DNA of 64,000 bases. Source: Mytilus californianus (lineage: Eukaryota). Below are positions 3,440-46,452 of this stretch, piece by piece. The notes under the pieces are model-generated. The model had not been told where the DNA came from. It did not search any database and was given only the letters and a program-made list of their open reading frames with translations. Each line of letters begins with the position of its first letter. Positions within the stretch are counted from its first letter, which is position 1. A program made the position numbers and the translations under genes. The stretch lies in the NCBI RefSeq assembly GCF_021869535.1, contig NW_026262734.1, forward strand, positions 40,088,487-40,152,486, in the 5' to 3' direction.

Positions 3440-3510
3440 TACCTACCTTGTAACAGCTTCCTGTGAGTTTAATGTGCATTCAATGGCTAGCTGTACCGAT
3501 TTCTGTAGAG
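3440..3510. repeat. MVP intron 10 starts with a ~71-bp diverged duplicate of the exon-10 3' end plus donor
   Basis: On the minus strand, 3440-3510 reads CTCTACAGAAATCGGTACAGCTAGCCATTGAATGCACATTAAACTCACAGGAAGCTGTTACAAG|GTAGGT. The real exon end at 3519-3590 reads CTTACAGAAATCTGTACAGCTGGCCATTGAAATCACAACAAACTCACAGGAAGCTACTGCAAG|GTAAGT. Confidence 0.8.
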
Positions 3511-3518
3511 TTACTTAC

Positions 3519-3730
3519 CTTGCAGTAGCTTCCTGTGAGTTTGTTGTGATTTCAATGGCCAGCTGTACAGATTTCTGTAAGGCATCTCTTGTTCTCTGAT
3601 CTACAGGCTCCACCGATTGGATATCAATACTGGTGAATACCAAGTTGTTCTGTGGGAATCTAAACGTTCCTCGAACTTTTCCTTTCTCATCAAAACCAAA
3701 TACTGAAGATCTGATGATTCTTGCAGAATT
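3519..3730 (-). CDS. MVP: MVP exon 10 ([70 protein letters not shown])
   Basis: Acceptor ttttag|AATTCT and donor GCAAG|gtaagt, phase 2. 212 nt. Matches NSARIIRTAVFGFE...[37 protein letters not shown]. Confidence 0.92.
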
Positions 3731-4008
3731 CTAAAATGAAAGAATGTATTTCTTTTAAGCTGACTTTTGATTTTATAGGCTCCTACGTTTCTACAAATTT
3801 ACACATCATGGCTTTCAAAAGTTTGTGTTTGGGCGTTTATGATGTAGGTAAATCCAAAAAAGCGCTTCGAACACACTTAATTGATACAGTCTTACACCCA
3901 TTTAAGAAAATGTTTTAGGTTCCCATCATGAGTGGGTTGGAGTGTGCCCTCATTCAAATATCATTTTCCTAAAAAACCGACCATTTCCTGTACAAAGATA
4001 ATGCTTAC

Positions 4009-4351
4009 CTTATGGAAATCATCAAACTGTACTTGTGCTACGGCCCCTCTGACACGGGAGGCTATAGCCTTGCAGGCATCTCCAATGAAATCTGGTACAC
4101 TGAAAATCTTAGCAGCCTCTGCTTTATCTTCTTTGCTCTCAATTTCAAAGTGCCAGTTGTACGACAGCTGTAAAGACAGTCTTGCATGGTCAGATGTTTC
4201 TACAGTAATGATGTCAGTACTGAAGTCCGGTCCGAGAAACAAACACAGAGATTTAATAACATTGTTTTTCTTTGGTTTGCCACCAGAAAGGCTTAGCTTT
4301 GTGAATTGTTCATCAGGACCCAATAAAACCAATTCGGGACCAAAAACCACT
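4009..4351 (-). CDS. MVP: MVP exon 9 ([69 protein letters not shown]...[32 protein letters not shown])
   Basis: Acceptor cgttacag|AGTGGT and donor CATAAG|gtaagc. 343 nt. Matches the MVP shoulder domain nearly residue for residue ([29 protein letters not shown]). Confidence 0.93.
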
Positions 4352-4674
4352 CTGTAACGAAAGATTAAATTATTGTTTTATAATATAACTTGCATGTCAT
4401 TATCTTGTCCTACATATTGTTAGATACAACGATTAGTCAAACCCTTTCCTGAATTGAGGCTAGGAACAGTCAAATTATAATGACTACTTTTGAGAAAATT
4501 TTAATAATTTTTGTTTTCAGTTTACATCAAAAACATGAACATGTTACATGTTTGAGTATATATGTCTCAATAATATATCACTGTCTTTAAAAATGTACAA
4601 TATTTGATCATTTCTGAACGTAGGTTATAATTGAAAATTCCTTGAGGTATAAATTACAAATGTTATCAGTATAC

Positions 4675-4916
4675 CTAGCTTTCTTTTCTTTATAATCGTA
4701 AATCTGTACAGCAGCATTGTGTGGAACTCGGAACGTGATTACACGTGTTTTGTCTCGTGGTTTTGATGCCTCACTTCCTGGTTTTGGCCCTCTCTCGCCA
4801 AAGGCCTGTGGATTTTTTGCCTCTGCCAGCAGTGTCTCGACTGCAGGAGGAAGTTCCTTGGCCCATAATTCCTCGTCCTGATTTAACATGTAAGTTTCTC
4901 CAGTTACAGCTCTGAC
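4675..4916 (-). CDS. MVP: MVP exon 8 ([30 protein letters not shown]...[25 protein letters not shown])
   Basis: Acceptor ttttag|GTCAGA and donor GCTAG|gtatac, phase 2. 242 nt. Matches [24 protein letters not shown]...[24 protein letters not shown]. Confidence 0.9.
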
Positions 4917-5554
4917 CTAAAAATTGCATTAGTACTTGATATGACAAGGTAATAAATAATAATATATGCTTTAAACAATCAAGGTATCTAAGCTCTGTTT
5001 ATATTCAGTTATTTTTACAGACTAAGGAATGTTGCATTTGATGTCTTAAATCATTACTTTTTCACATTGATGTTCAATATAACTGCATTACCAAATATCA
5101 AACTATCAACTGACTTCTGAAAGAAAGATACACACATTTCAATAGACCACTTTCGAGTTCGTCGCATTGCCATCAAAAACTGGTTTTAGTGAACATCATT
5201 CGTGCGTTATGGGGTGTCGTCACTTCCTTCACATGTTGAGCGAGCGGTTGAAAAAAATATGATTCTATATTGCACGAACCATTCGGCAAATTAATTTCTT
5301 TTAATTGATAATCAGCACTGCTATCGTTAGGGAATTGTGACTAAGTACCTACGGAATAAACATTATTTCTAGTTTATCCTGCACATGTGACGACCACGAA
5401 GACGCTTGATGAACTTTAATAGTGCAGGGATACAGGCGATACCCTGTATCTGGTAAATGACGTCATAAAGGCTCGCATAATTGAAGAACTTTTCCGGTGA
5501 AGGAAATAACTCGAAAGGGGTCGATTTGTTGAACATAAAAACAGTATGACAAAC

Positions 5555-5704
5555 CTTTCCAGTTTTGATACATCTGACATAGATACCCTCATTTTCATCC
5601 AGTGGCAGTGCAGTTCTCTTCATGGTAACCTCTACCTCCACAGGTGGCACGTACTCTGCTGGTCCCCGAATCATCCATTTATCTCCTGGTTTTCGTTCTA
5701 TTTT
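5555..5704 (-). CDS. MVP: MVP exon 7 ([50 protein letters not shown])
   Basis: Acceptor ttttctag|AAAATA and donor GGAAAG|gtttgt. 150 nt. Matches [50 protein letters not shown]. Confidence 0.92.
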
Positions 5705-6147
5705 CTAGAAAAATAAGCCTTAGTCATTAGAAATATATATCCAGTAAAAACAAAATAAACGGAACACAGCAATTATAATTTGCATTAATACCACCTACAA
5801 AAAGAAATAATCGCAAAACTGTTTTTAAACAAATCAATATTTGCATTCAGACATTTATCAGTAATAAATGTGTTCCCAGAATAAGTACTGACAAGGGAGT
5901 AATAGAAGTAATACCATAGGCACTGGCCTTTGAAATTTTAAGCATATGTATACTAGCATTCAGGCATACTTCACGTGATTGCAATAACAGCTTGATGAGA
6001 AATTCTTTTTCACAAGCTTGGGTCATTTTCTCTGTTTACTTAGAATATTTTGTTTAAATGTTTTGGTATAATTACAGACAACCAATCACAAAACGAATGA
6101 ACGAACACGTGACCTAAATATTTAATAGTGTTCAGAGTTAAACTTAC

Positions 6148-6273
6148 AGCATCTTTATCAATGAATGATTCTGTGGCTCTCAGGATAACACCTTCATCTT
6201 CACCAAGTACATACACATTTTGAATTCCTCTCTCAAATCGTTCTCCAGGGAGTAAAAAGAAAGAACATTCACC
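6148..6273 (-). CDS. MVP: MVP exon 6 ([42 protein letters not shown])
   Basis: Acceptor gttttag|GGTGAA and donor GATGCT|gtaagt. 126 nt. Matches [35 protein letters not shown]. Confidence 0.9.
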
Positions 6274-6811
6274 CTAAAACATACAATGTGAAATGAGAAA
6301 AACTATTTACTGAGGAAATTAAGAAAGACACAACTGATTAAAACATTACAGTTAAATGAAAGAACAACCTTCTGCTATCAATTTATTCTCTTTATATTAA
6401 TAAAAATCAAATTTTCCCAGAATGTAACATTTGGATACGAATACAAAGACAATTACTCTTTTGGAGCTTGTAAAAATGAAATGCCCCCCACCCTATCTTA
6501 AGATTTTGTTTGCAAGTGTTGATACATTTCTGTTTTTTTTTCTCCATTGGTGTTTTTTTCTGGATTTTAGCTTGACATTCAAAATAATCATTTCAGTAGA
6601 TGTCAATAAATTAGCTGCTTTTTTTACATCCTACATTACATCAGGGTGCTTTGGCCACGGTTAAAACTACCCCTATTTACATAAACCCGTTTCATCTTGT
6701 CAACTTAGTAATGTCATACTTAATATCATCTAATAGCTCAAAGACATGCCTTTGATTAACCTCGGTAGTACAGTACATTACCTCTGCTAGGTCATGAAAA
6801 AATTAATTTAC

Positions 6812-6922
6812 CTTTACTAATTTCTTTCTACCAAGCTGTAGTCTGCCATGTTCATCGGAAGGATCAAGGATGATACAATATTGTCTAGAGGTTAGTGTGG
6901 TGATGTTCACGACTCCGACAAC
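6812..6922 (-). CDS. MVP: MVP exon 5 (VVGVVNITTLTSRQYCIILDPSDEHGRLQLGRKKLVK)
   Basis: Acceptor ttttcag|GTTGTC and donor GTAAAG|gtaaat. 111 nt. Matches [38 protein letters not shown]. Confidence 0.9.
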
Positions 6923-7430
6923 CTGAAAAATCAACATATAACCGTCATGGTCTTTATGGTTTATCAGAAAACTAGGAAACTTTTCCTCAGCAGTAACAAC
7001 TATTTCTTTTCAGTAGGCGATTAGTTTCAGTTTTCCTAATACATTGGCCTTACTAAACCATCGAGGCACTAGTAACTATGAAGACTCTGGATTAACCCGT
7101 TTTGGACATAGCAGTTTTGACGTATTTGACGGAATAAACCAAAGTGTGAAAAAAAGTTTTGCTTGATTTGTTTGTTCCAGTACACTTTATTGAGTTGTAC
7201 TCAAATCGTTCAAATTTACAAATATTCTAATCTCTATTTGACTCAATTGGTACTTTTCTAGAGCAGTACTTCTTAACCTAGTCTGAACTGTATCTAGGAT
7301 GGATCTCCAAAAACACTCAACCAAAGAGAAGATGTGTTCTCCAAAAAGAGTTTTCCTTCATTAAGCGCAAATAATAATAGTTGGTCATTCCATATTCCAT
7401 TTCATGTTAAACCACTTATTTAAATCCAGT

Positions 7431-7544
7431 ACATACCTCTTCATACACATTAGGTATGTGTGTTTATTATTACACCAGTAAGGAACATACCTCTACATAC
7501 ACATTAGGTATGTGTGTTAATTATTACACCAGTAAGGCACATAC
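7431..7544. repeat. MVP intron 4 starts with two 54-bp tandem copies of [last 22 nt of exon 4 + GTATGT donor + 26 nt of intron]
   Basis: Three units at 7431, 7485 and 7539 read ACATACCTCT(T/A)CATACACATTAGGTATGTGTGTT... The third overlaps the real exon end at 7545. Each intronic copy carries an intact GAG|GTATGT on the minus strand. Confidence 0.85.
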
Positions 7545-7670
7545 CTCTTCATACACATTAGGTATGTGTGTTTCTGTGTCGGTCATTTTGATCAACCATT
7601 CCTCTCCGTTCTTCCTGGTTACACCAAAGTCATCTTTAAATGTTCTCAATGATATCATATGAAGGGCTTT
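7545..7670 (-). CDS. MVP: MVP exon 4 (KALHMISLRTFKDDFGVTRKNGEEWLIKMTDTETHIPNVYEE)
   Basis: Acceptor ttatcttgcag|AAAGCC and donor GAAGAG|gtatgt. 126 nt. Matches the MVP segment [40 protein letters not shown]. Confidence 0.9.
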
Positions 7671-8242
7671 CTGCAAGATAACACCATACATTTTAATGCT
7701 GACTAATGTCTTGTACCTTATTAAAATGGTGATCAATTATGTCAAATTAACTTTAATGAGTAGTAAATTGTTTGTTTCAATTATGTTGCATTTTCGTTCT
7801 GTCTGTTATCTAATATCTTAAGGATACTAGTGTTTGATCTTTTTTTTCCGTCCACAATTTACAATGCAATGTATTTAAAAAATAAATGGGGAATGTGACC
7901 ATGGGACACAGATGATGCCCCCGCTTGTATAATAACGTTATAAAGGGACATAACCCAAGAACGATTAAGAGTTCAAACAATCACATCCTCAAATAAAATT
8001 TTCATTGGTTGAATGCATGGAATGTTATCAATGCGTTATGTAAAAAGTAGTGATAAAATCCGGAAAATTGATAACTATCAAGCTAGCATCATAAGGGTTT
8101 TGACTGCATTAATGCAATCTTACCCCAAGAAAAACCTGAAACACTTACTGACTGATCATAGATCTATTTAGAACTCTTGCTTCACCTTAAAATATCACAC
8201 CTTATTTTTATTGCCACTTCATCTGAATGAAACTATATTTAC

Positions 8243-8593
8243 CTTATCTGTTAAAACATAAGCGTTGACAACATCTACGACTTCTTCATAAGCTCCTGGG
8301 AGGTAAGCTCCAGTCTTCTTTACCAGCCATTCCTCACCAGTTACCCTAGCAACACCTTGTCTGTCAATAGTCTCCTTCCTAGCCCGCAATCTTATGGCCT
8401 GGTTAGGTCTAATGACTGTGGCCCTGACAGTCTCCTCAATAACAGCCTCCTTCCTTGGGATATATGTTCCTGGTCCTTCAAATAGCCACTCATCCCCAGC
8501 TGTTCTCTTTTCCTCATCATCATCTTCAAAGTCAAGAATAGCTCTGAGACGAAGAGCTGAGTTGGCTGCTACCACTTTCAGGGCGGTTACAAC
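8243..8593 (-). CDS. MVP: MVP exon 3 ([24 protein letters not shown]...[17 protein letters not shown]...[34 protein letters not shown])
   Basis: Acceptor tttatag|GTTGTA and donor GATAAG|gtaaat. 351 nt, phase 0 at both ends. Contains the canonical MVP repeat motifs [14 protein letters not shown] and TGEEWLV. Confidence 0.92.
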
Positions 8594-8870
8594 CTATAAA
8601 CAACAAGCAAGAAAATCAAATCAGCTGCTACCAATGTCATTAGGTTATAACGTATAAACAAATAGGGAGAAAATCCAATAAACTGCAATTACTTTCAACG
8701 GTGATACACCTATAAACAACAAAGGAGAAAAATCAAATCAGCTGCTACTTCATTTAGGTAGGCTACAACCAATAAACAACAAGGGGGAAATCAAATCAGT
8801 TACTGCCACTATTTTTTAGAGGAGTTACAACCTACAAACAACAAAGGAGGAAACTTATTGGTGACAACGA
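8594..8870. repeat. MVP intron 2: ~60-bp tandem repeat x5 whose unit begins with a copy of the exon-3 acceptor junction
   Basis: Units at 8585, 8646, 8706, 8765 and 8827 begin ACAACCTATAAACAACAA, the reverse complement of ttgttgtttatag|GTTGT (polypyrimidine tract, AG and first exon bases). Copies at 8706 and 8827 retain AG. Confidence 0.85.
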
Positions 8871-19996: not shown

Positions 19997-21614
19997 CGTT
20001 ACATGCCTTCATCAATAAACTGACCGACTCGATTGTAGGAATTAATCCTTTTGGGACCATACATTGTATGTATAGCAGATGGATAACTCCATAAATTTAA
20101 ACAAAACTCAAATTGTCAAACAACCTCTGTGATTACGGACATTATTTCATATACATACAAAGATTTTAAACGTGTAGAAAGACATATACTCATTTGATTT
20201 TTAACAAATGATGTAGGTTTTTTTTTTAATGTTCAGTTTTGTATACAGCTGTCATTACTTAATCGATTAAGCAGCAAGCGTTCATGTATTCATTTACTTA
20301 GTCATAACAATATTGTATTTCAACGCTCTAACATTTTGATTGTCTCCGAGAACAGGTAATTCAATTATATATTCTTTATATTGTATTTATTCTTGAGATA
20401 ACTTCTCTGATGTGTGCTACATGTAAATCAGTCTTTCAATTTACGGCTGTTTGTGTAATTTTAATAAGAAGCACACCACCTATTTTTGGCCCCCATTGCT
20501 TTCTTCATTAAATTTTTTTACTTTCAAAAATTAAAGGGAAACGGTCAATTTACCGTTATTTACACATCAGACCGTACCGAAACTTTGGATACACCAAACC
20601 AGCTGGTACTTCATATCTGAGAAACAGGCAATGTACATTTTTGTATAATTAAAAAATATCAGTCAAATGGTGTTCTACAAAAATGTATTCTTCATGGTTT
20701 GATATTTACACCTATGCGTAGGAACTATTTTGTTTTAAATATGTACGACTGTTGGTATGTTCTTTTTGACCGGGCCCGAGTTGGTGGTGTAACAGCTTAC
20801 CAAGGAGGTTATAAGACTCCTTGGTCTTACGTAGTCTAGACGAATTATTTTCCATATACATACTGTATTTCCTGCTAATAAGTTATCTAACATATATCGC
20901 GATGTGCCCCGTGGTTGTCTAAATGTTTGTTTTGTTGCTGCAGTCGCATTCTTCAGTGTGATTGTCAGGCTAAATTACAATACATGTTTGATTTCTTTGC
21001 CTGATTTATTTATTGACATTACTCCATGGTTTTGTTCTTCAATTCACAGTTATGGCATGATCGTCAGTTTGCAAAGAACTCCGCTCAAACCGGTGCTAGG
21101 GGCCGTCTTAAACTTGCAGTGAGGTGAGAGTTTTTTGGCTCCTTGTTGAAAAACTCACTGTGACTTTGAGATGTTTCTTTGCTTTTTGTGTTTTTCAAGT
21201 ATTGCGCACATACTGATTTTTTGTCATGGATGGATCCCCTATATTTTTTCTTTTTTATTATGTAGTTTAATTCAGGACATCATAATCTTTTATTAGACCT
21301 TATTTATCCTTTAATGAACAAACATCTAAAATAAAAGCAGCGGTTCCATATTAAACATACCCTTTTTACATGATTGTTGAAAGTTTTGTAAATGAAAAAA
21401 AGGTGATGCATATGTTTAAAAGGTACATTGGACAACTTCTTCCTTTTGACTACGTGTATAAATAAGTACTTTCAAACCGCGCTGAAGTACGTTCACTATT
21501 CACTTTTCGCTATTCAAAATTCATGAAAAGTGAACTGGTTTTTTTTTGCACTTTTCACTATTCAAGTTTATTCAAATTGAATAACTTTAATATCTACTTG
21601 CATATATACAAATT

Positions 21615-23879: not shown

Positions 23880-25490
23880 TCTGTGTTGTAGAACGCCCGA
23901 ATACCAAAAACAACACAAACAACGCTGAAAAAATACAACACAAATCACGTTACGATCGAGTTTTGAACCCCCGAATCCCCTAATTACAGGTATATCCTAT
24001 ATATCATAAGAAAGCTAATAAAAGGAGGAACAAAAGTTTTATAGTGAATATAGGGCACAGATCCGGTTTAAGGGGTAATGAAGCGGCCGAATACCGAAAA
24101 CGGCCGAACCTAAGAAAAAATACAACACAAATCACGTTACGATCGAGTTTTGAACCCCCGAATCCCCTAATTACAGGTATATCATAGATCTATCATAAGA
24201 AAGCTAATAAAATGAGGAACAAAAGCTATATAGTGAATATAGGGCACAGATCCGGTTTAAGGGGTAATGAAGCGGCCAAATACCGATAACGGCCGAACCT
24301 AAGAAATATTACAACACAAATCACGTTTAGATCGAGTTTTGAACCCCCGTTTCCCCTAATTACAGGTATATCCTATATATCATAAGAAAAGTAATAAAAT
24401 GAGGAACAAAAGCTTTATAGTGAATATAGGGCACATATCCGGTTTAAGGGGTAATGAAGCGTCCGAATACCGAAAACGGCCGAACCTAAGAAAAAATACA
24501 ACACAAATAACGTTACGATCGAGTTTTGAACACCCGAATCCCCTAATTACAGGTATATCATAGATATATCATAAGAAAGCTAATAAAATGAGGAACAAAA
24601 GCTTTATACACAGCTACTTTTGCATAGGTACTATTTCTGTACCAAAAATCTGTAGTACTGGAAATCTACTTTTAATTTTCAGTACTATTTTGTTACTTTA
24701 AATTTATTGTAATATTTAGGTACCTGTATTTTACAGTACTTGATTTGCACTTGAAATTTAAGTACTACAGATTTTTGGTTACACCGTTACATTTTCAGCA
24801 TTTTGAAAGTTTGTCTATTTCAAATCTCTTTAAGTTATGATTTTCAAACATATGGAATATTGCGATCACTGTTGGTATTATTTCTGTACCAAAATTTTTA
24901 GTCCAATCAAGTACTGTAAAATACGGGTACCTAAATATTACAATAATTTTAAAGTAAAGAAATAGTACTAAATATTAAAAGTAAATTTCCAGTACTTCAG
25001 ATTTTTAGTACATAAATAGTACCTATGCAAAAGTAGCAGTGTAGTGAATATAGGGCACAGATCCGGTTTAAGGGGTAATGAAGCGGCCGAATACCGAAAA
25101 CGGTCGAACTTAAGAAAAAATTCAACACAAATCACGTTACGATCGAGTTTTGAACCCTCGAATTCCCTAATTACAGGTATATCCTATATATCATAAGAAA
25201 GCTAATAAAATGAGGAACAAAAGCTATATAGTGAATATAGGGCACAGATCCGGCTTAAGGGGTAATGAAGCGGCCGAATACCGAAAACGGCCGAACCTAA
25301 GAAAAAATACAACACAAATCACGTTACGATCGAGTATTGAACCCCCGAATCCCCTTATTACAGGTATATCCTATATATCATAAGAAAGCTAATAAAATGA
25401 GGAACAAAAGCTATAATATAGTGAATATAGGGCACAGATCCGGTTTAAGGGATAATGAAGCGCCCGAATACAAAGAACGGCCGAACCTAT
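23880..25490 (+). repeat. ~185-bp satellite array, plus orientation (~6.5 units, interrupted by a MITE at 24609-25041)
   Basis: The unit ...GAATATAGGGCACAGATCCGGTTTAAGGGGTAATGAAGCGGCCGAATACCGAAAACGGCCGAACCTAAGAAAAAATACAACACAAATCACGTTACGATCGAGTTTTGAACCCCCGAATCCCCTAATTACAGGTATATCCTATATATCATAAGAAAGCTAATAAAATGAGGAACAAAAGCTTTATAGT... recurs with ~184-186 bp period. Confidence 0.9.
24609..25041. mobile_element. 433-bp MITE with ~150-bp terminal inverted arms, inserted into a satellite unit, flanked by TA/TA
   Basis: The satellite consensus ...ctttaTAgtgaatat... is split as ctttaTA[cacagctacttttgcatagg...cctatgcaaaagtagcagtg]TAgtgaat. Arms 24611-24760 and 24890-25040 are reverse complements. A TA target duplication is typical of Tc1/mariner-type (Stowaway-like) MITEs. 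Confidence 0.75.
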
Positions 25491-28400
25491 TCACTATATA
25501 GCTTTTACTCCCCATTTAATAAGCTTTCTTATGATATATAGGATATACCTGTAATTAGAGGATTCAAGGGTGCAAAACTCGATCGTAACGTGCTTGTTGA
25601 AGTATTTTTTCTTAGGTTCGGCCGTTTTCGGTATTCAGGCACTCAATTACCCCTTAAACTGGATCTGTGCACTATATTCACTATATAGGTTTTGTTCCCA
25701 ATTCTAAAAGCGTTCTTGGGATATATAGGATATACCTGTAATTATGGAATTCAAGGGTTCAAATCTCAATCGTAACGTGCTTGTTGAAGTATTTTTCTTA
25801 GGTTCGGTCGTTTTCGGTATTCGGGAGCTCCATTACCCCTTAAACTTGATCTGTGCACTATATTCACTATATAGGTTTTGTTCCCCGTTCTACAAGCTTT
25901 TTTAGAATGTATAGGATATACCTGTAATTAGGGGATTCAAGGGTTCAAATCTCGATCGTAACGTGCTTGTTGAAGTATTTTTTCTTAGGTTTGGCCGTTT
26001 TCGGTACTCGGGCGCTCCATTACCCCTTAAACTGGATCTGTGCACAATATTCACTATATAGGTTTTGTTCCCCATTCTATAAGCTTTCTTAGGATATATA
26101 GGATATACTTGAAATTAGGGTATTTAAGGGTTCAAATCTCGATCGTAACGTGCTTGTTGAAGTATTTTTTTCTTAGGTTCGGTCGTTTTTGTTATTCGGG
26201 CGCTCCATTACCCCTTAAACTGGATCTGTGCACTATATTCACTATATAGGTTTTGTTTCCCATTCTTTAAGCTTTCTTAGGATATATAGGATATACCTGT
26301 AATTAGGGGATTCAAGGGTTCAAATCTCGACCGTAACGTGCTTATTGAAGTATTTTTTCTTAGGTTCGGCCGTTTTCAGTATTCGGGCGCTCCATTACCC
26401 CTTAACATGGATCTGTGCACTATATTCACTATAAAGGTTTTGTTCCCCATTCTACAATCTTTCTTAGGATATATAGGACATACCTGTATTTAGGGGATTC
26501 AAGGGTTCAAATCTCGATCATAACGTGCTTGTTGAAGTATTTTTTCTTAGGTTCGGCCGTTTTCGGTATTCGGGCGCTCCATTACCCCTTAAACTGGATC
26601 TGTCCACTATATTCAGTTTAAAGGTTTTGTTTCCTGTTCTATAAGCTTTCTTAGGATATATAGGATATACCTGTAATTAGGGTATTCAAGGGTTCAAATC
26701 TCGATCTTTGTTAGGCCTATCCCTTTTATCTACAATTAATTATTTTTTTACGTAAAATTCCACTTGATCGTGCATCTCAAATCCACTTATGGATATCTAG
26801 AAGCTTACGGTACAATTGTCGCACTTAGTTTGTTACATATATTTCTAGGGGGTGGGGTCCACTTTTATTCATAAAGCATTAAAGTGAGCATTCGTTTCCG
26901 GCATCATTTCTCTATCGGGATGTCCACACTAATTGAAATCCGCCGACTAAACGGTACACCTTGTGTCAGGGGAGGGCAAAAGACTTATTATGTCTCTAAG
27001 TGCCAATAATTCTTTTCAAAATCTCACTTTCCAATTAAAAATACTCACATATTTACACATTTATATATAAAAAACATAGAAAAATATGAAAAGGCTATAA
27101 GAGGTAATATACACAAGTAATGAAAGTTTCGTATAAAACTATGGGTGTTTTCCTCAAGAAAAATCTAATAATAGCACTAACAAATAAGATATCTGTGTTG
27201 TAGAACGCCCGAATACCAAAAACAACACAAACAACGCTGAAAAAATACAACACAAATCACGTTACGATCGAGTTTTTAACCCCCGAATCCCCTAATTACA
27301 GGTATATCCTATATATCATAAGAAAGCTAATAAAATGAGGAACAAAAGCTTTATAGTGAATATAAGCTTTCTTAGGATATATAGGATATACCTGTAATTA
27401 GGGTATTCAAGGGTTCAAATCTCGATCTTAACGTGCTTGTTGAAGTATTTTTTTCTTAGGTTCGGTCGTTTTCAGTATTCGGGCGCTCCATTACCCCTTA
27501 AACTGGATCTGTGCACTATATTCACTATATAGGTTTTGTTTCCCATTCTATTATCTTTCTTTGGATTTATAGGATATACCTGTAATTGGGGAATTCAAGG
27601 ATTCAAATCGCGATCGTAACGTGCTTGTTGAAGTATTTTTTCTTAATAGGTTCGGCCGTTTTCGGTATTCGGGCGCTCCATTACCCCTGAAACTGGACCT
27701 GTGCACTATATTTACTAATAAGGTTTTAATCCGCACTCTATACGCTTTCTTATGATATATAGGATATACCTGTAATTGGGGGATTCAAGGGTTCAAATCG
27801 AGATCGTAACGTGCTTGTTGAAGTATTTTTTCTTAATAGGCTCGGCCGTTTTCGGTATTCGGGCGCTCCATTTCCCCTTAAACTGGATCTGTGCACTATA
27901 TTCACTATATAGGTTTTGTTCCCCATTCTATAATCTTTCTTAGGATATATGGGATACCTGTAATTAGGGGATTCAAGGGTTCAAATCTCGATCGTTACGT
28001 GCTTGTTGAAGTATTTTTTCTTAGGTTCGGCCGTTTTCGGTACTCGGGCGCTCCATTGATTACCCCTTAAAATGGATCTGTGCACTATATTCAGTATATA
28101 GGTTTTGTTTCCCGTTCTGTAAGCTTTCCTAGGATATATAGGATATACTTGTAATTAGGGTATTTAAGGGTTCAAATCTCGATTGTAACGTGCTTGTTGA
28201 AGTATTTTTTTCTTAGGTTCGGTCGTTTTCAGTATTCGGGCGCTCCATTACCCCTTAAACTGGATCTGTGCACTATATTCACTATAAAGGTTTTGTTCCC
28301 CATTCTATTATCTTTCTCTGGATATATAGGATATAACTGTTATTGGGGGATTCTAGGGTTCAAATCTCGATCGTAACGTGCTTGTTGAAGTATTTTTTCT

Positions 28401-28620
28401 TAGGTTCGGTCGTTTTCGGTATTCGGGCGCTCCATTACCCCTTAAACTGGATCTGTGCACTATATTCACTATATTGGTTTTGTTCCCCATTCTATAAGCT
28501 TTCTTAGGATATATAGGATATACCTGTAATTAGGGGATTCAAGGGTTCAAATTGCGATCGTAACGTGCTTGTTGAAGTATTTTTTCTTAATAGGTTCGGC
28601 CGTTTTCGGTATCCGGGCGC
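25490..28620 (-). repeat. Same ~185-bp satellite in minus orientation (~13 units), interrupted by an inverted segment at 26708-27364
   Basis: Reverse-complement units (GGATCTGTGCACTATATTCACTATATAGG...) with 184-186 bp spacing. The head-to-head junction with the plus array is at ~25489/25490 (ccgaaccta|ttcactatatag). Confidence 0.9.
26708..27364 (+). repeat. Inverted (plus-orientation) copy of ~500 bp of leader plus one satellite unit, embedded in the minus array
   Basis: 26708-27364 is a near-identical direct copy of 23396-24050 (tttgttaggcctatccc ... ctttatagtgaatata). The junctions show short microhomology (tata). Confidence 0.85.
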
Positions 28621-29539
28621 TCCATAACACAGATTTTCTATATGTTAGTGCTTTTTTTAGATTTTTCTTGAGGAAAACACCCCTCGTATTTTATGCGAAA
28701 CTTTCATTACTAGTGAATATTACTTCTTATAGCCTTTTCATATTTTTCTATGTTTTTTTTTATGTTTAAATGTGTAAATATGTGAGTATTTTTAATTGGA
28801 AAATGAGATTTAGAAAAGAATTATTAATATTTGCACTTTGAAAAATAATATGTTTTTTGCCCTCCCCTGACACAATGTGTACCGTTTAGCCGGCGGATTT
28901 CATTTAGTGTGGACATCCCGATATATGAGTGCTGGAAGAAACGAATGCTAACAAGTATCCTATCTCTTTATACCTTAATACTAGATAAAACTAGGCCTCA
29001 ACGTTTCAAGCTGATAGAATTTTAATCGAATTCTAAAAATTATTACACAAAACTTACCAACTTAAATAAACTTATTCTAAAAGGTTACCAATTCAACATT
29101 GTCATTAGATCTTTGAATATTTTTTTTATTGGTATTACTATTGATTTTGTTATCAGTAAATTAAAAGTAAACTAAATATTATTCTTATATACATATACAT
29201 TTTCATGGATCTCCAATCTGTCGATTCCGGTATCTTGGCATTGCACACGGTCATGTTTTTCTCTTACTGTTTATGACGTCTTTACACTAAATCCATGTTG
29301 GATGTGTACTGATTGAAAGTCAGTTTAGTTTTAAATGCATGATTTTTTTATTAGTTGTTATTGGCTTTAAACTAGCTGCCAGTAACTTGCGAGTACTCTC
29401 AGATCTGTACTTAGTGTCATTTTGTTGTTGGGATGTACAAATACCCGGCAACGTTCACTCTATGTTTTTGTTAAATGTATTTCTATGTTTATCCATCTCA
29501 TGAGTTAAGCCTTTTACAACTGATTTTTATAGTTCGTTC

Positions 29540-37710: not shown

Positions 37711-38760
37711 CAGTGATTTTAAACGTGCAGAAAGACATACTCATTTGATTATTGTGACAGATGATGTAGTCTATTTTTTAAATTTTCAGTTTTGTATACA
37801 GCTTTCATTACTTTGTATAAATGAAATTTGTATACAGATGTCATTACTTAAATCGATTAATCAGAAAGCGTTCATGTATTCATTCACTTACTCATAACAA
37901 TATTGTATTTCAACGCTCTAACATTTTGATTGTCTCCGAGAACAGGTAATGCAATTATATATTCTTTTGAACATTTTTTCTGTTTTTGAAATTAGAAAAT
38001 GTAAAGTGTACATATACTTCGAACGCACCGATTATTCTTATTCTGTGTTTGCAAAGGCGGGATGCCTTTTTAACATAATTTTTTCAAATACAGTGATTTT
38101 TAACGTGTAGAAAGACATACTCATTTTTGTAACAGATAATAGTCTTTTTTTTCAATGTTCAATTTTGTATACAGCTGTCATTACTTAAATCGATTAATCA
38201 GCAAGCGTTCATGTATTCATTTACTTGCTCATAACAATACTGTATTTCAACGCTCTAACATTTTGATTGTCTCCGAGAACAGGTAATGCAATTATATATT
38301 CTTTTGAACATTTTTTCTGTTTTTGAAATTAGAAAATGTAAAGTGTACATATATTTCGAACGCACCGATTATTCTTATTTTGTGTTTGCAAAGGCGGATG
38401 CCTTTTCAACATAATTTTTTCAAGTACAGTGATTTTAAACGTGTAGAAAGACATGCTCATTTTTGTAACAGATGATGTAGTTTTTTTTCTTTCAATGTTC
38501 AGTTTTGCATACAGCTGTCATTACCTAAATCGATTAGTCAGCAATTGTTCATGTATTCATTTACTTGATCATAACAATATTGTCTTTGAACGCTCTAACA
38601 TGTTGATTGTCTCCGAGAACAGGTAATGCAATTATATGTTCTTTCGAACATTTTTTTTCAAATTAGAAAATTTAAAGTGTACATATCCTTCGAATGCACC
38701 GATCATTATTATTCTGTGTTTGCAAAGGCGGGATGCCTTCTTAACATAATGTTTTTTGTC
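37711..38760. repeat. Tandem array, 3 units of ~336-380 bp, preceded by leader 37541-37710; a solo leader+unit copy lies at 19997-20400
   Basis: Unit start CAGTGATTTTAAACGTG(C/T)AGAAAGACAT at 37711, 38091 and 38427. The leader GTTACATGCCTTCATCAATAAACTGAC... is shared by 19997 and 37547. Confidence 0.85.
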
Positions 38761-41556
38761 AAACTGCTTTTTTTTTATCAAAGTTTAAAGTTGTGTGTCC
38801 CGAAAATACCCCTCCTCAAAAAAGGATTAAAGGTCTGTACCTAATATATTATGTTTGCGTTACATTCTGCTTCTGTTGAATGTGACGGGTGTTTGAGCAT
38901 ACTGTCTTTAAATTTGAAATCGATGTTCATTTTCTATAAATGTTTATAAAATATTGAAATATTCAAAGCAATTATGTTTTTCTATCAATAGGCATAGACT
39001 GCCTTAGCCGTGTTTGGCACAACTTCGAAGTTTTCAGTTTTGGTTGCTCTTCAAATTCGGCATTTCAACTGATCGTAATGAAGCTATGTGGATAAATTTA
39101 TCAGTTTTCAAGAGCTAAATTGACAGCGCGTCATCCCTACGTCATCCCTACGATGGCTTCCATTTTCAAGATTAAAAAAATAGGTGGCGTTATGGGGAAG
39201 ATAATTTTGTTGAAGTAGAATCCTTACTGATTCTTGTTTACAGAAATATAAACACACTACACACTAAGATCTGATACTGTTCATATGTGCAATATGACAA
39301 CGTAAACATTCTTGTCTAAATTGATTTTGGAAATACGAATTGCTCTTGATTTGGATTAATATGTAACGATAAATGATAATTTTCAATTAAATCGGTGAGA
39401 TCATTAACTCCACAAAATTTCAATACACACAATTTCATTTAATGTTCATCTTAAAGGCTATCTTTTTAGGATGTGTTTTATTTAATCGTAGTCTTTCAGA
39501 TACATGTATCATGTTAATCTATTTTTCGATTGAGCTAATAGAAAATATGCAGCTTGACACTTTTCAAATGAGAATTTTTCTTTCTGCAAGAATACATGAA
39601 GTGCAGGCTAAAAGTTTACAGGCATATATGGTTGTTATAATGTAAATTATTTCCCAACATTTAATAGGATTTTTTCAGAGTAAACAAAGGACAAACAAAT
39701 TCAATACCTAATTATGTTCAGCTACACATCTTTATTAAATTAATTTGGTTTCAAGATAAATTGTCATACAGTTACATCTGACTAGTTCCTGAGTATTATT
39801 GTGTTAATTGCCTTCATAATTAAAAGAATTTCTACCAATGGTCTAAATTTATTTAAGGCTAGAAATGTTTCGAACAAACTAACTGCTCCAAATATTCTGA
39901 TTAAGAATTTATGCCGAATTTTTTATCCCAAGATCCCACAAAATATCGACCTCCACTCTCCCCATTTTTGGTTGAAATTTAAAATAAATTATGTCACGTT
40001 GCAATATGATAATTGTACGAGGGCTTGTCACTAGTGGGGAACGTGTCCATGTCTCCTTACTTGCATGCATTCGTCTATAGGTTATATTCATATCATCAGG
40101 TGCAAAAATATCTACCACAATGAAAAGTTATAAAAACAGGAAATGTAATAAGTCAATTTAGTACGATTCTTAATGTCACAAATAACTATATCTATTTCCT
40201 AGACTGTGTAATATTTCGGTCAAGGATTGGTCTTCTCATCATAGGTAACGGCGTTAGGCTTTTTTTTTTATGTCTAGGCCTTTTACTCGCAGTTTTTAAG
40301 TAAGCTGGTCAAGTTATTACATAAAAAAACTCCTTTTTAACATGTGATCTATCTCTGCTTCTCCGCATTGACTTTCCTGAAACAAAAATGCAAGAATATC
40401 TCCTTTTGGCAAAATGTACTGAAATATGTATTTCGCTTTCGCAGACAGCAAATCATATAAAAATGTGAATAAATTAATTTTATCATTAAACGGTCATAAA
40501 TTATTGATCTGGTCATTGCCTATATATAAAATAAGTGACAAAATGACCATTATGATAAATCAATGAGGTCATTATAGTGTTAATTAACATTTGAAGACAA
40601 CACGATCTGACCAATTTTTACGGTTAACTGAACGAGACAATACTTTTCATTGTGTCAGTTTTCTTACTTTCCAAAAAGAAAACGCCACAATTCCAACCTG
40701 GAAAAGTTAACTTTTGAGTTTTTATATAAAAAAGAAGATTTTGTCTATTAAGGAAAATTAATAATAATAATAATTAAACCTGTTATTCTTCGAAAGGTAA
40801 GTTTTATAATTCAAATTAATATCTACTTGTATTTTTTACATTTTACAGCATATTTCTGTACTTCTTTTTATATTGAGTCTTTTAATTAATTCCTTACGTC
40901 GATTTTATTGACGCCATTTTATATTATACTAGTACAGTTGGTTTAATTCTTAAACATTAAGTGTAATAACAGTAAGTATAACTATTCTCTGAAAGTCAGA
41001 CAAATATTTAACCTTTATTTAAAACAAATAAACAAAGCTGGATTTTTTTGGTACAAAAGTGTCTCTGAACACGTGACTTTTAAAACGGCGAAGGATGTTC
41101 TGATTGTATGGTCATGATTCAACAAATGTATGTAAAAGACAAGATCAAGCCATAAAAAGTGCTTTTCACGTAACTAAATGTCACAAATCTACTTTTTATT
41201 AGCATACAATACACAAATAACAAAAACAGTGTTGCAAATTAATTGTTTTATTGCCATATATGAGGATCTGGATGGGGTTTCTTCATTTCTGTATTCTTTA
41301 ATTGCTAATGCCATTTTTTTCTATTCTTTAATTTTTTTTTTGTATAAAATTCTCCTTTCTCTATACTTGAACACCACATTATTTTCTTTTCTTTTTGCCT
41401 ATTTTTCTCTAAATTCTTAATTTTTGGCCCTTTGATTCTCTATGTCTGCCCATTATTCTCTTTTCTGTAAAACCCATACAAACCCTCATATATTTTGTCA
41501 AATCATATCAACCTGACCATCTTAGATAACATATAATATTTATTTACAGAGTCAAG

Positions 41557-41614
41557 ATGTTGTTTACTTTATTTGCCATTGTCTCTTCTTTGGTTATATT
41601 CAACAAAGTACATG
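41557..41614 (+). CDS. Exon 1 (signal peptide MLFTLFAIVSSLVIFNKVH-G) of the VWA + chitin-binding protein gene
   Basis: An ATG is followed by 19 mostly hydrophobic residues and a GTAAGT donor in phase 1. This phase matches the acceptor (tttgtag|CC) of the VWA exon 2.09 kb downstream. The link is inferred from phase and signal-peptide logic only. Confidence 0.5.
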
Positions 41615-43382
41615 GTAAGTGTTAAATTATTATACTTTAAAATTTTGCATGATTTGCTTCCACAACAACCAAACGAAAGGAAAGGAAAAATATTATCATT
41701 ATGGTTTGAAATTAAGGTGGTACCCAACACCTTGACTAATATTCATTTGGCTCGTTTAATTTTCATAAAATTTTGACAAAATGTTTACTTTGACCCTTTG
41801 ACAAAAATATAATCAAAGTACTGAAGTACTGAACATCGGATGACCACAAGTTCTTGAGGATGGTCAAAAGCACTTGTCTCAGAAAAAAACAACATATCTC
41901 TTTACCTGAAACTGAGGTTAATGTACAGAGATATATTTTTTTCTGAGACAAGTTCGTGCGTGGATGATGAATAAATTACAGGAAATTCAACTTCACCGTA
42001 ATAACTATTATATTGTAGTGATACAAATCAGTATACATGGTGGACACTTTTCTGTAAAAATTCGATTTTTCTAAGATTGGATACGAGTAGGCATTCATAT
42101 TTTCCCGCAATAACAATTACAGAGTTACCGGTCCTCGCAAAAAGTTCTCTGAGATATTCTTCCGCATGCTTTAACACAATTTTTCGGTACGTCTGCATTG
42201 ATATTATCAATGATTTTTTACTTATATATATATATCTAACTACAAAACATTTTCATATTATTAATTTATGTTGTAAACAAAAATATTTTTATCAGTATTC
42301 ATTGAAGAGATGTATTTATATCAAACGATAAGGAATGTTATTTTGCATTCGTTTATGTGCGCATATTTATCATGTTTATAGATCGGTTACAAACCCAAAA
42401 CTAATTTACATAATGGAAATCTAGGCGATAGCAATACATCTGAATGACCCCAAGGTCATCTCGATGTAAAAATTTCAAAAAATTTGAACCAACCACTTTA
42501 TCAGAAAAATTTCATTGGTTATATAGCAGTTTGACAAATACTAATTTTGATCATTGAGAAGCTTAATATTTCCTACAACAATACAACGTGATTAAAACGT
42601 TTAGCTGATTTTTACAGAGTTATCTCCCTGTAGTGTTAGGTACCACCTTAAATTAGACAAACGTATAAAACCAGAAGCATTTGTATTATCTTATCATGGT
42701 TTTTATATGGTATTTATGAGTTTATATACACGAAAACTCTTGCAATTGTGTAGTTTACAGAAAATAAGTTACCTGTTATAACGTCATCTGTCATAAAAAC
42801 CCTTTTCATGATGTCACATGTGGGCAAGAGAAACCAGATAACTGCATGGACATTTGACGACATAGCTGAAAACATGGAAATCCTAAATTGAACATAAAAT
42901 GAAAGAAAACCTGATCGACAAAAGCATGAATCGGTCATGAATAAGACAACACAAACACAAATATGCCATTGAGACAGAAACCCCAAAATACGATATCATT
43001 TTACAGAGTAAATAAAAGATGTCTAACTAGATAACCTTGACGTACTCCAATTCATTGGTTACAACATAGTACAATGCTGTATTATACTCGTAATTGGTAT
43101 TGTAAAAGATACAAGTTGACAAAGCCTTTATAAGTCAAATATTTCAAACTTAGCAAAATTGGTCGCATTATTTCAAGAACAGGATGAAATTTGACATTAT
43201 ATTAAAATATGAGCTCTGCCTTCAGACTTTAATAACCAATTTCATAATCAGCTTTATATTGTAAAATATCAAGTGTTTAAATTTAATCATATGCAATTGT
43301 CGTATATTCTTCCCTGACATTTCAATGAAAATAACACGTTTTACCTTTGGTGGCTCCGAAGCTCTATTCTAATTAACCTTCA

Positions 43383-43442
43383 TCAGCAATGCTCAAATCA
43401 CCCCCCCCCCCCTCCCTTCCCCCCCCCCCCCCCCCAAAAAAA
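43383..43442. repeat. Homopolymer tract: poly-C (with CTCCCTTCC interruption) followed by poly-A
   Basis: Direct reading. Lies ~115 bp upstream of the VWA exon acceptor, within intron 1. Confidence 0.9.
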
Positions 43443-43705
43443 AGAAGGATGTATAAGTACTTAAATAGATGAGAAGCTATATAACCAAAACGGGCTTCAA
43501 AAGAATAGCTAAATCCTTCTCTGGTCAATTAGAAGGAGTTTGAACCTAAGTTTCTTAATAATTTCTACATTTATCAAAGGAGAATGTAAGAAAGTACTGT
43601 TATAAATCATGTCAGTACCGAAGTCAAAAAGTATCGTCGCCAGAAGTCAATTTTAGATGCTGGAAATTTAATTAACATCCCATATTGCTATATTTCTATT
43701 TGTAG

Positions 43706-44305
43706 CCGATTGTGGAGGGAAGGCTGATATAATATTTGCTATTCCTGGGAACAATGAAATTCCTGGAGAAGAATTCTTTCCGTTTGAAAGATTCTTAACA
43801 ATGCTTGTAGATTATTTTAAAATCGACAGAGACAATGTAAATATTGGTCTTATATTATATGGAAGAGAACCCGTGGCAATCAGTTGGCCGCAACCAATGA
43901 AAGACCAAACACAAACCAATACGAGAGTAAGCCTACTTGCGGAAAGAGAATTATACAATGGTAAACTTAAAGGCAGAGCAGATGTAAAGGGGGCACTTAA
44001 TTTAATGAGACAAATGTTCAGAAATCCATCAGGTTATCATCATCTGCAGTTATCTCGACCTGATACCAAACAGATTGGAGTGATGTTCACGCATGGTTCA
44101 GTTCAGACAAATATCAGTCAAGATGTGATCACAGCTGCAAACCAGTTTAAGGAAGCAGGGATCGAAATGTATTCAGTAGGAAACATGCCAAATGGTGAAT
44201 GGTATTCAGAGATAGCCTCTCATAAATGTAAAATTTTATCCGTGGAAAGTTACTCTGAGGGTTTAAAAGGCCTACTTCCTTATATAGGGAGCAGTATATG
44301 TACAG
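43706..44305 (+). CDS. Exon 2: von Willebrand factor type A domain (ADCGGKADIIFAIPGNNEIPGEEFFPFERFLTMLVDYFKIDRDNVNIGLILYGREPVAIS...VMFTHGSVQTNISQDVITAANQFKEAGIEMYSVGNMPNGEWYSEIAS...)
   Basis: Uninterrupted 200-codon reading frame bounded by acceptor tatttgtag| and donor G|gttagt. It has the VWA hallmark layout: a beta-strand entering the DxSxS position, an LYG segment, a TDG-like segment and a final amphipathic helix. Confidence 0.85.
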
Positions 44306-44959
44306 GTTAGTTTTATATATATACCCATATAACAACAATCAACATACTTTTCGTACTATAATCTTTAAAGCCTAATTCAAGCATCTGATACAACTCCCTT
44401 TTGTTTTTTGCTATGAATTAGTATCTTAATCTTTTTTCGTTCATCATCGGAACTTTCCATCCGATTGGTTCATTGTGTTTGATGTTTTTCTTTTAATCCA
44501 CATAGTTCCTGATAATTTATATGCAGCAAATTCATAAACAAAAACTAAATTTCAAAATAAATACACCTTGAAGTCTATTATGTATGTAATTCCCTTGTTT
44601 TACTTGAAATGACATGCTTCATACCAAACAACGAAAATACGACACAAAGTAGAACAACGGTCTTCAAAATAATACATGTATATATGAACTAACGAGTGAA
44701 CAACGCAAAGCCTACCAAAAGCCGGTGTGATCTCATTTTATCCGAAAGTGTATGCAGATTTTGCTCCACATTTGACAACCGTTGTTTTTGCTCATAGTAA
44801 AATGAATATAAAACATACAATTGTTTCATATAAAAATCTGTACATAGGAAAATTCCCCCCTTTAAATCAGACTGAAAAAAAGGTGAATTGCATATATACT
44901 TGATTCCAATTGATACATTTTTCTTTATTCCATTTACTGATGCATTATTGTCCTTTCAG

Positions 44960-45004
44960 CAATAGAAAATGTTGTAAATGTTACAGATGACAATTGTTTT
45001 CCAA
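44960..45004 (+). CDS. Exon 3: 45-nt symmetric micro-exon ((A)IENVVNVTDDNCFP), possibly a cassette
   Basis: cctttcag|CAATAG...TCCAA|gtaagt. It is phase 1 in and phase 1 out, with length divisible by 3. Skipping it also keeps exons 2 and 4 in frame (G+AA=E). Confidence 0.5.
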
Positions 45005-46084
45005 GTAAGTAAAGCATGGTAGACATTTACCCTCAAAGACAGCAAAGGGATAAAGGAAAATCAAACTTGTGCCCCTATAAATTGTTTGAAAAAATATACA
45101 GTTTAAAGTTAACTATTGATATAGTAACATGTTACAGATTGCATATATATATCAGTTACATACATAAGTTAGATTATTACTATACAAATAGATAAATGAT
45201 TTTGGAAACTTTAAATGTACGCTCTTGTAACGCAATTATGAAAGATCGATCTTACCTCAAAATGACAGGAATACAAAAATCCACAATCCACTCTCTTTTA
45301 TCAATTTTTTTAATCCTATTTCAATTTGTTCAGTCGTCCTGAGCATGCATGAAATATTTGCCACTGGACGTTAAGCAAACAACAATCTATTTGTTCAGGA
45401 AAAACATAAATTCACCATTGATGTCAGAGAAACTCTGATTTGTCCACAACGTATGATTAACGCTGAAAATAAACTTATCATAGATACATGTACCAGGCTT
45501 AAAATTTTTTACGCCATGAACACGCGCGTTTTGTTCTGCAAAATACTCATCAGTTTCGGTAGAATAAAAGAAAGTTAAACATGGCCAAATAAAGTACGAT
45601 GTTGACGAGCATTGAAGACCCAAAATTCCGAAATGTTTTGCCAAATACATTCCTGGGGTAAACAAATCCTTAGTATTTCGAAAAATTCAATTTTTTTAAA
45701 CACTTAATTCATAATCATGACCATATAAAAAAGGAATAGAAAGGGTTGTTGATTTTTCGGTGCTATTTCAGGAAATTTTGGCTAACATTCAGGATTCTTG
45801 ACGCAATAACATTAACGATACCAATGTTTCTGCACCAGATGCGCATTTCGACAATAAATGTCTCTTCAGTGATGCTCGAGACCAAAATATTTATGTGTAG
45901 CGTGTGCCAAAATAACTTTTCGTTAAAATATAATTTACGAAGAAATGTGCGATAAAAGCATAATAGCTTGATGAATAAACCGGTTATACTCAAGGAATTG
46001 AAATGCAACCGTTGTCTTTTACATAAACAGATAAACCAATATCATCTTTACGATATGTTTTTATCAAATGTTTGTTCTTTTCAG

Positions 46085-46452
46085 AATTTTGGAAGCCCAG
46101 TCCAAACCCGCCAGTTACTTGCCCCTCTCTGAATGCAATATTTCAGGATCCTTATAATTGTGCCTATTTATTCAAATGTGATATGAATATTCCTGTTCGT
46201 GAAAGATGCCCAACAGGAATGCTCTTTGACAACTCGATCAAAGCTTGCAATCATAAAGATGCCGTTCCGTGTTACTCGATGATAACATGTCCGAATCATA
46301 CAGGTCTTTTTCCGCATCCAGAAGCCTGCAATAAATTCTTGAATTGTTTCGACAACATTCCATATGTACAAAAGTGCCCGTCTAACTTGTATTTTAACAA
46401 TGAAACCAAAATCTGCGATGAGGAGTACAAAGTTAATTGCACGTTTCATTGA
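46085..46452 (+). CDS. Exon 4: two tandem peritrophin-A / chitin-binding type-2 (CBM14) domains, TGA stop at 46450-46452
   Basis: Acceptor ttcttttcag|AATTTT. Two 6-Cys modules with CBM14 spacing: CPSLNAIFQDPYNCAYLFKCDMNIPVRERCPTGMLFDNSIKACNHKDAVPC and CPNHTGLFPHPEACNKFLNCFDNIPYVQKCPSNLYFNNETKICDEEYKVNC. AATAAA motifs follow at ~46526 and ~46621. Confidence 0.88.

Follow-up and report, generated by a model that had tools for sequence, protein, structure and literature searches.

The window analysed here is a stretch of 64,000 nucleotides from the mussel Mytilus californianus (contig NW_026262734.1, positions 40,088,487 to 40,152,486), and it holds on its plus strand the gene LOC127711472, the subject of this analysis. 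When rebuilt from the sequence, the coding sequence (CDS) ran from an ATG at position 41557 to a TGA at position 46452 and comprised four exons of 1071 nt in total, which encode a protein of 356 amino acids (Table 1). All three introns of the CDS are of the GT..AG type and lie in phase 1. Along its entire length the conceptual protein matched NCBI entry XP_052073506.1 with 100% identity; the RefSeq title of this entry is "uncharacterized protein LOC127711472" (Mytilus californianus), and the gene and its exact model are therefore already annotated. An earlier inspection of this DNA (the sequence-only reading) had proposed a signal peptide, a VWA domain, a short linker and two CBM14 modules at positions 41557-46452. 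The rebuilt CDS, the Pfam matches and the RefSeq identity bear this model out, and its coordinates were exact, with the start of exon 4 now set to 46085; the proposed length of ~370 amino acids had to be corrected to 356. Long open reading frames (ORFs) are scarce in the window: only nine reach 110 amino acids or more, and exons 2 and 4 account for two of these. Together with a ratio of nonsynonymous to synonymous substitution rates (dN/dS) of 0.136, discussed below, this means that the gene is not a chance ORF. In a tblastn comparison of the protein with the window, only its own exons were matched, so that no second copy of the gene was found and a tandem gene family in the window was ruled out. 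Contigs encoding the exact M. californianus protein were not recorded in our search.

Profile searches with Pfam detected both domain types above their gathering thresholds, as had been expected. The VWA domain (PF00092) was matched at residues 27-203 with E=4.5e-13 (score 50.2 bits, cutoff 23.8), and two stretches were matched by CBM_14 with E=3.5e-20 (score 72.3 bits, cutoff 22.1). At E<=1 no further domain was found, and there was no laminin-G-like (LG-like) region. The cysteine spacing of both CBM_14 modules, here called CBM1 and CBM2, is 12-5-9-12-7, the peritrophin-A pattern. The protein ends three residues past the last cysteine of CBM2, as it does in all orthologues, and the mature form has an isoelectric point of 5.9 (36 Asp plus Glu against 31 Lys plus Arg), in agreement with the earlier remark that an acidic tail is lacking. 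The N-terminus has a hydrophobic core with V-H-A at positions -3/-1 and is followed by a mature start, (D/E/Q)-C, that is conserved in all orthologues; a signal peptide is predicted here.

To view the domains in three dimensions, a model was built with AlphaFold2 on an alignment of 18 family sequences. Its mean predicted local distance difference test score (pLDDT) was 85.7 and its predicted template-modelling score (pTM) 0.82, which is high for a three-domain protein; over the segment encoded by exon 3, a micro-exon of 45 nt, pLDDT was 81-84. The VWA part of the model has the Rossmann-like alpha/beta fold of VWA domains, and with it Foldseek retrieved the N2 and N5 domains of collagen VI alpha3, integrin I domains, vWF A domains and the mussel byssus protein PTMP1 at E ~1e-10, with target-normalised TM scores of ~0.8 to 6snk and 4igi. 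Among the sequences of solved structures in the PDB, the closest were the VWA domains of collagen VI alpha3 and the CBM14 modules of chitinase, chitotriosidase and tachycitin. The protein thus shares the VWA fold with the collagen VI alpha3 N-domains, matrilin, vWF A and PTMP1 (closest structures 6snk, 4igi and 4cn8), but those proteins have no chitin-binding modules and the identity is only 14-22%. Several VWA domains of the collagen VI, matrilin and vWF A types bind their partners without a functional metal site and possess a disulfide clasp between their N- and C-terminal ends. The CBM14 pair resembles the modules of chitinases, chitotriosidase and tachycitin in its six-cysteine spacing and its conserved aromatic residues (matches to 6g9c, 6so0 and 1dqc). 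Here, however, the modules stand in tandem and are fused to a VWA domain, in place of a catalytic GH18 domain or the setting of a mucin-like peritrophin.

The VWA domain lacks a canonical metal ion-dependent adhesion site (MIDAS), as the sequence-only reading had noticed. In the alignment to the collagen VI alpha3 VWA domains, residues 29-37 (IFAIPGNNE) correspond to the D-G-S-x-N/S loop of the MIDAS. More precisely, the HMMER alignment places A-D-I-I-F-A-I-P33-G-N-N-E over A-D-I-I-F-L-I-D-G-S-N-N, and a proline thereby occupies the position of the first Asp of DxSxS. A second departure was seen further on, where I-G-V-M-F-T-H-G-S lies over the strand end with T-D/G-G and TDG has become THG. 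The two changes behave differently across bivalve and gastropod orthologues and paralogues: Pro33 is invariant in all 18 sequences (18/18), and the position of the second MIDAS Asp is taken by H, Y, W, N or F. Among the orthologues, loss of the MIDAS is constant from protobranch bivalves to abalone and limpets. Because Pro33 is invariant in all 18 sequences and the second Asp is replaced, the metal site must have been lost before the split between bivalves and gastropods, and this loss has been retained since. Two neighbouring segments, P-G-S/N-x-x-I/V-P-G-x-E-F-F-P-F-E-x-F-L and Q-T-N-T-R, are among the best-conserved parts of the protein, a hint that the former MIDAS face may still be a working surface.

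Full-length relatives of 346-363 amino acids with 36-55% identity were found in bivalves and gastropods. They comprise sequences from mussels (five species of Mytilus), scallops (Pecten, Mizuhopecten, Argopecten and Ylistrum), oysters (Crassostrea/Magallana and Saccostrea), an ark shell (Tegillarca), a protobranch (Solemya), a unionid (Sinanodonta), heterodonts (Mercenaria, Ruditapes, Dreissena and Mya) and gastropods (Haliotis, Gigantopelta and Lottia). Every major bivalve lineage searched thus had full-length members, and among the snails they were present in patellogastropods, vetigastropods and neomphalines. Database searches revealed no member in cephalopods, caenogastropods or heterobranchs, a statement that is limited by database coverage; their absence could reflect lineage-specific loss or an artefact of this coverage. 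A single copy is the rule in this orthogroup, and additional paralogues occur in Pecten and Mya.

How sharply this family is set apart became clear from two large searches. An exhaustive HMMER search of 1.84 billion representatives gave 7410 proteins that share a domain at E<=0.001. Among the best 150 of these, only the family proteins of ~350 amino acids matched the profile from end to end. Most of the best 150 were giant proteins with multiple VWA or multiple CBM domains and summed scores, and just one protein from outside the family, a metagenome protein of 1032 amino acids, had both domain types. A profile search of a set of 5.8 billion proteins (candidates sharing words with the query, E<=10) returned the family only, after which the score fell from 185 to 30 bits. 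Compared with the M. galloprovincialis orthologue, which is 85% identical, dN/dS was 0.136 overall, 0.148 for the VWA domain and 0.065 for the CBM exon. This orthogroup of ~350-amino-acid proteins is well separated, slowly evolving and under strong purifying selection.

The micro-exon between the VWA exon and the CBM exon is real, symmetric (phase 1/1) and frame-neutral, as had been stated, and skipping it would keep the frame and leave an ORF of 342 codons. Its 15 residues include a near-invariant N226-V-T sequon (N-x-S/T) and the invariant N231-C232-F233-P234, and the mean conservation of this segment is 0.69 as against 0.65 for the whole protein. The VWA-plus-linker part contains four invariant cysteines, C22, C194, C218 and C232. 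DSSP applied to the AlphaFold2 model assigned beta-bridges to residue 22 and to residues 228/231, and Cys22 and Cys232 probably form a clasp of the vWF-A type that joins the N- and C-terminal ends and closes the VWA domain. By DSSP and VWA topology, Cys194 and Cys218 may form the second disulfide pair.

By exact spliced mapping of orthologous proteins to their genomes, the corresponding micro-exon was found to measure 45 nt in Pecten maximus, Solemya velum and M. galloprovincialis and 48 nt in the gastropod Gigantopelta aegis (4577-4624 of the locus analysed in that species). The intron-exon layout appears to predate the bivalve-gastropod split, because Gigantopelta keeps its 48-nt micro-exon. 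In Mercenaria mercenaria the intron upstream of the micro-exon was lost, which resulted in a VWA exon of 642 nt (597+45; 2356-2997 of the Mercenaria locus), and the segment therefore cannot be skipped in this species. Between M. californianus and M. galloprovincialis the micro-exon has 90% DNA identity, whereas the flanking introns align in short patches only, at ~66-79%.

Since skipping is frame-neutral, the sequence-only reading had suggested that isoforms may differ in linker length. The arithmetic of this suggestion holds, the phase 1/1 exon preserving the frame when omitted, and one database entry has precisely the expected form: the M. edulis model CAG2185679.1 (340 amino acids, not from RefSeq) omits exactly the 15 micro-exon residues (…SSICT/EFWKP…). 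We nevertheless regard as very unlikely a regulated skipping of the micro-exon that yields two functional proteins with different spacing between VWA and CBM. Skipping would remove the invariant Cys232 and leave an odd number of cysteines (15), the segment is conserved above the average of the protein, and its fusion to the VWA exon makes it unskippable in Mercenaria. Moreover, the RefSeq models of M. edulis, M. trossulus, M. galloprovincialis, oysters and scallops all include the segment, and the RefSeq isoforms annotated in Crassostrea and Mya differ at the N-terminus only. It is also contained, without interruption, in mRNA-like contigs assembled from the RNA-seq data of two further bivalves. 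As automated gene predictors often miss micro-exons, we regard CAG2185679.1, the sole such model, as a case of a missed micro-exon, the alternative being a rare skipped isoform or low-level skipping. The micro-exon looks constitutive rather than optional, because it is conserved above average, carries the invariant Cys232, is kept across species, is fused to its neighbour in Mercenaria and is present in mRNA contigs.

Proteins with VWA and chitin-binding (CB) domains form a recognised class. These VWA-CB domain-containing proteins occur in molluscs and related lophotrochozoans and are expanded in molluscs, and a non-shell ancestral role has been inferred for them (Zhao et al. 2018, PMC6231486). 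In Pinctada, expression in shell-forming tissue is absent for about half of the VWA-CB genes, and VWA-CB proteins are recurrent in larval and adult shell proteomes (PMC6231486). With a VWA domain and CBM14/ChtBD2 modules in one molluscan polypeptide, the LOC127711472 protein belongs to this class. Shell-matrix VWA-CB proteins typically also have a laminin-G domain, and a separate group of "other non-SMP VWA-CB proteins" (SMP, shell matrix protein) is distinguished that has one VWA and typically two CB domains (2020, PMC7747718). The present protein resembles the latter group in having one VWA followed by two CBM14 modules and no laminin-G. Unlike that group, which is defined only by architecture and absence from shells, the present orthogroup has specific shared features.

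The same domain order had led the sequence-only reading to a shell-matrix architecture like that of Pif or BMSP, and two distinct questions arise here, namely whether the protein belongs to that family and whether it serves in shells. Pif is a precursor of ~1000 amino acids with an acidic Pif80 part. This precursor, in the description credited to Suzuki et al. 2009, reportedly carries a Kex2-type cleavage site, and its acidic Pif80 half is reported to bind aragonite. In the present protein no sequence lies past CBM2, so that neither the cleavage site nor the acidic half has a counterpart. The likeness is to the N-terminal product Pif97 and to the PfmPif97-like protein of Pinctada, representatives of the Pif subfamilies, which have a signal peptide, one VWA and two six-cysteine type-2 chitin-binding modules and are proposed to link chitin to other matrix proteins (PMC6907788). 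The PfmPif97-like protein is, however, longer, at 606 amino acids (PMC6907788) as compared with 356 for the protein described here. BMSP from M. galloprovincialis (BAK86420) likewise combines VWA and CBM14 in a secreted Mytilus protein, but it is 2111 amino acids long, has four VWA domains in tandem and CBM_14 at ~850-1015, and extends into a long C-terminal part (PMC11291548). The BMSP subfamily is characterised by several VWA domains, four of them in bivalves, ahead of the CB domain; the present protein has a single VWA stretch.

The Pif/BMSP family has been delimited as a strongly supported VWA clade with eight subfamilies, for which entry was set at BLASTP E<1e-10 to the PfuPif VWA, and the members with lengths in tables measure 600-2289 amino acids (Shimizu et al. 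2024, PMC11291548). The Lottia orthologue of LOC127711472, Lgi_238400 (LOTGIDRAFT_238400; profile match 5-298, E=3.8e-79), is listed in supplementary tables S2/S3 of that study, which cover all VWA proteins; it appears neither in S4 (BLASTP to the Pif VWA) nor in S5 (the family list), which indicates, if indirectly, a place outside the clade. Additional CBM_14-like modules, an LG-like region and inserts of low complexity, such as poly-Thr or acidic stretches, are usual among members of the family (PMC11291548). In the present protein CBM_14 does lie downstream of the VWA domain, but none of these other elements is found, and the DxSxS motif, which according to a figure legend is marked as the MIDAS in the Pif-family VWA alignment (PMC6907788), is absent. 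By the published criteria, the present family appears to lie outside the Pif/BMSP clade. Of the earlier proposal, then, the domain order stands, but the attribution to Pif/BMSP does not follow from it: LG and acidic regions as well as the MIDAS are missing, the lists do not include the Lottia orthologue, and the architecture matches that of the non-SMP group.

The protein could still be a mantle-secreted shell-matrix protein of the Pif97/BMSP type that organises the chitin scaffold of nacre or prisms, and its Pif97-like N-terminal order of domains as well as the recurrence of VWA-CB proteins in larval and adult shell proteomes speak for such a role. VWA 'collagen-like' expressed sequence tags (ESTs) have also been reported in connection with Mytilus shell proteomes (PMC4517812); these could be neither matched to the present protein nor excluded. 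We consider this role unlikely, since the laminin-G domain typical of shell VWA-CB proteins is lacking together with any low-complexity or acidic region, the length of 356 amino acids falls below the range tabulated for Pif/BMSP members, the MIDAS is lost and Lgi_238400 is missing from both the Pif-VWA BLAST list and the family list. The family is, in addition, equally conserved in molluscs with nacre, foliated calcite or crossed-lamellar shells. At a dN/dS of 0.14, its evolution is far slower than is usual among shell matrix proteins. A core role in a chitin matrix accounts better than a lineage-specific role in shells for the strong purifying selection, the near single-copy state and the equal conservation across shell types.

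We consider it likely that LOC127711472 encodes a secreted member of a conserved bivalve and snail orthogroup outside Pif/BMSP, which serves as an adaptor and tethers a partner to chitin in a metal-independent manner. The two peritrophin-A (CBM14) modules would bind chitin, and the metal-free VWA domain would dock a protein partner through its conserved, remodelled upper face with the loops P-G-S/N-x-x-I/V-P-G-x-E-F-F-P-F-E and Q-T-N-T-R. Because the CBM14 pair would bind chitin and the VWA face a partner, the protein may link chitin fibres to a matrix protein, as an adaptor or cross-linker. The micro-exon would be a constitutive structural piece that contributes Cys232 and a conserved N-glycan site and holds CBM1 rigidly against the VWA domain. 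Several points weigh against this reading. Literature searches by LOC number, by accession and by Sequence Read Archive run of the gene and its orthologues gave no matches; the disulfide pairings, that of Cys194 with Cys218 included, are deduced from DSSP and VWA topology; the position outside Pif/BMSP is argued from the Lottia tables and the missing features, not from a tree of our own; and in M. edulis there is the one model that omits the micro-exon residues.

The same domains would also suit a soluble immune or mucosal factor for chitin recognition, in which the CBM14 pair binds chitin of fungi or parasites and the VWA domain recruits effectors. The predicted secretion, the common occurrence of CBM14 modules in chitinases and chitotriosidase, and the compact fold of the AlphaFold2 model, which is free of matrix-type repeats, would accord with such a factor. 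Immune recognition genes usually expand and evolve fast, however, whereas strong purifying selection acts on this nearly single-copy family, and an immune function therefore seems highly improbable to us.

By class, then, LOC127711472 is an ordinary uncharacterised member of a known group of proteins, and what is distinctive about it is the conserved micro-exon and the ancient loss of the metal site. In the literature searched we found no description of this orthogroup, in which the MIDAS is lost throughout, four additional cysteines are conserved and the micro-exon is kept, and a literature search for VWA plus chitin-binding proteins in connection with the gastric shield gave no match. Proteins that combine VWA and chitin-binding domains are regarded as central to the origin of the mollusc shell, and published surveys also record that shell-forming tissue does not express about half of them. 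The compact, unusually conserved and near single-copy branch described here is easy to trace across species, to express and to knock down. It also gives reason for caution, in that a VWA followed by two CBM14 modules is, as an order alone, insufficient to call a protein a shell-matrix protein; a simple transfer of Pif function is argued against because the LG and acidic parts and the metal site are missing. As a tentative and somewhat doubtful extension, the orthogroup, whose conservation dates from before the split between bivalves and gastropods, may represent an ancestral, non-biomineralising task of VWA-CB proteins, the organisation of a chitinous matrix through a metal-independent VWA, from which shell proteins would have been derived by the addition of LG and acidic modules. 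If this were true, the orthogroup would offer a tractable single-copy handle on the pre-shell function of VWA-CB proteins.

Table 1. Features of LOC127711472 and its upstream region (positions in the window; residues of the 356-amino-acid protein)
Feature	Position	Strand	Length or residues	Remarks
Candidate 5' leader exons	37827-38756	+	337-bp tandem repeat, ~2.8 copies	Found with Tandem Repeats Finder (TRF); each copy ends GAGAACAG/GTAAT, donor-like
5' untranslated part of first coding exon	41550-41556	+		After acceptor ttatttacag/AGTCAAG; read from the sequence
Coding exon 1	41557-41614	+	58 nt	Start codon and predicted signal peptide MLFTLFAIVSSLVIFNKVH(A); donor G/gtaagt, phase 1; identical to RefSeq
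Coding exon 2	43706-44305	+	600 nt	Mature N-terminus with Cys22, entire VWA domain
VWA domain	43726-44256	+	residues 27-203	Pfam PF00092
Degenerate MIDAS loop	43726-43758	+	D27-IIFAIPGNNE-37	P33 in place of the first Asp of DxSxS
Coding exon 3 (micro-exon)	44960-45004	+	45 nt	Phase 1/1; encodes (A)IENVVNVTDDNCFP
Coding exon 4	46085-46452	+	368 nt including TGA	Pro-rich linker, two CBM_14 modules
CBM1	46120-46272	+	residues 247-297	Pfam CBM_14
CBM2	46288-46440	+	residues 303-353	Pfam CBM_14
Candidate polyadenylation signal AATAAA	46526-46531	+		74 nt past the stop codon; from sequence alone

Upstream of the gene, the 337-bp tandem repeat has donor-like sites at 37938, 38275 and 38615, ~3 kb before the ATG, and a fourth, dispersed copy of the unit lies at about 19997-20377. 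When the 45-amino-acid N-terminal extension of the M. coruscus models CAC5419286/7 was used in tblastn, it matched each copy of the tandem repeat. These M. coruscus models of 401 amino acids read ...ENRVK-MLFTL, which requires an acceptor at 41549/41550, seven nt before the ATG. The 337-bp unit probably serves LOC127711472 as a 5' leader exon, either alternative or duplicated and perhaps with a promoter, and the transcript probably starts in this repeat region, because the M. coruscus models join the unit to the acceptor at 41550. In M. galloprovincialis, the 10 kb upstream of the gene yielded no match to the repeat. A longer protein of 401 amino acids, as in the M. coruscus models, was rejected: the extension comes from the upstream repeat and displaces the conserved signal peptide from the N-terminus. 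In oysters, RefSeq isoforms of C. gigas LOC105332019 and C. angulata LOC128190570 have alternative 5' exons that add seven residues (MKIKGER-/MASPGER-) before the Met of the signal peptide, and by analogy these may echo the leader-exon arrangement proposed for Mytilus.

The sequence around the gene is AT-rich throughout the window (about 30-37% GC). Within intron 1, at 43400-43445, a long poly-C tract broken by a few T is directly followed by poly-A. Nothing coding was evident between 46.5 and 64 kb. At 7100-8700 of the locus examined in Pecten maximus, a Na+/sulfate-dicarboxylate symporter gene (SLC13-like) lies downstream of the orthologue, and no comparable ORF was evident at 46.5-64 kb in the Mytilus window. 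Towards the other end of the window, a 187-190-bp satellite forms large arrays in both orientations at 23927-28625 (TRF scores up to about 2000), and exons of a major vault protein gene are located on the minus strand at about 1698-8575, where Pfam matched MVP_shoulder (5.8e-37), Vault_3 (1.2e-17) and the Vault repeat (2.2e-36).

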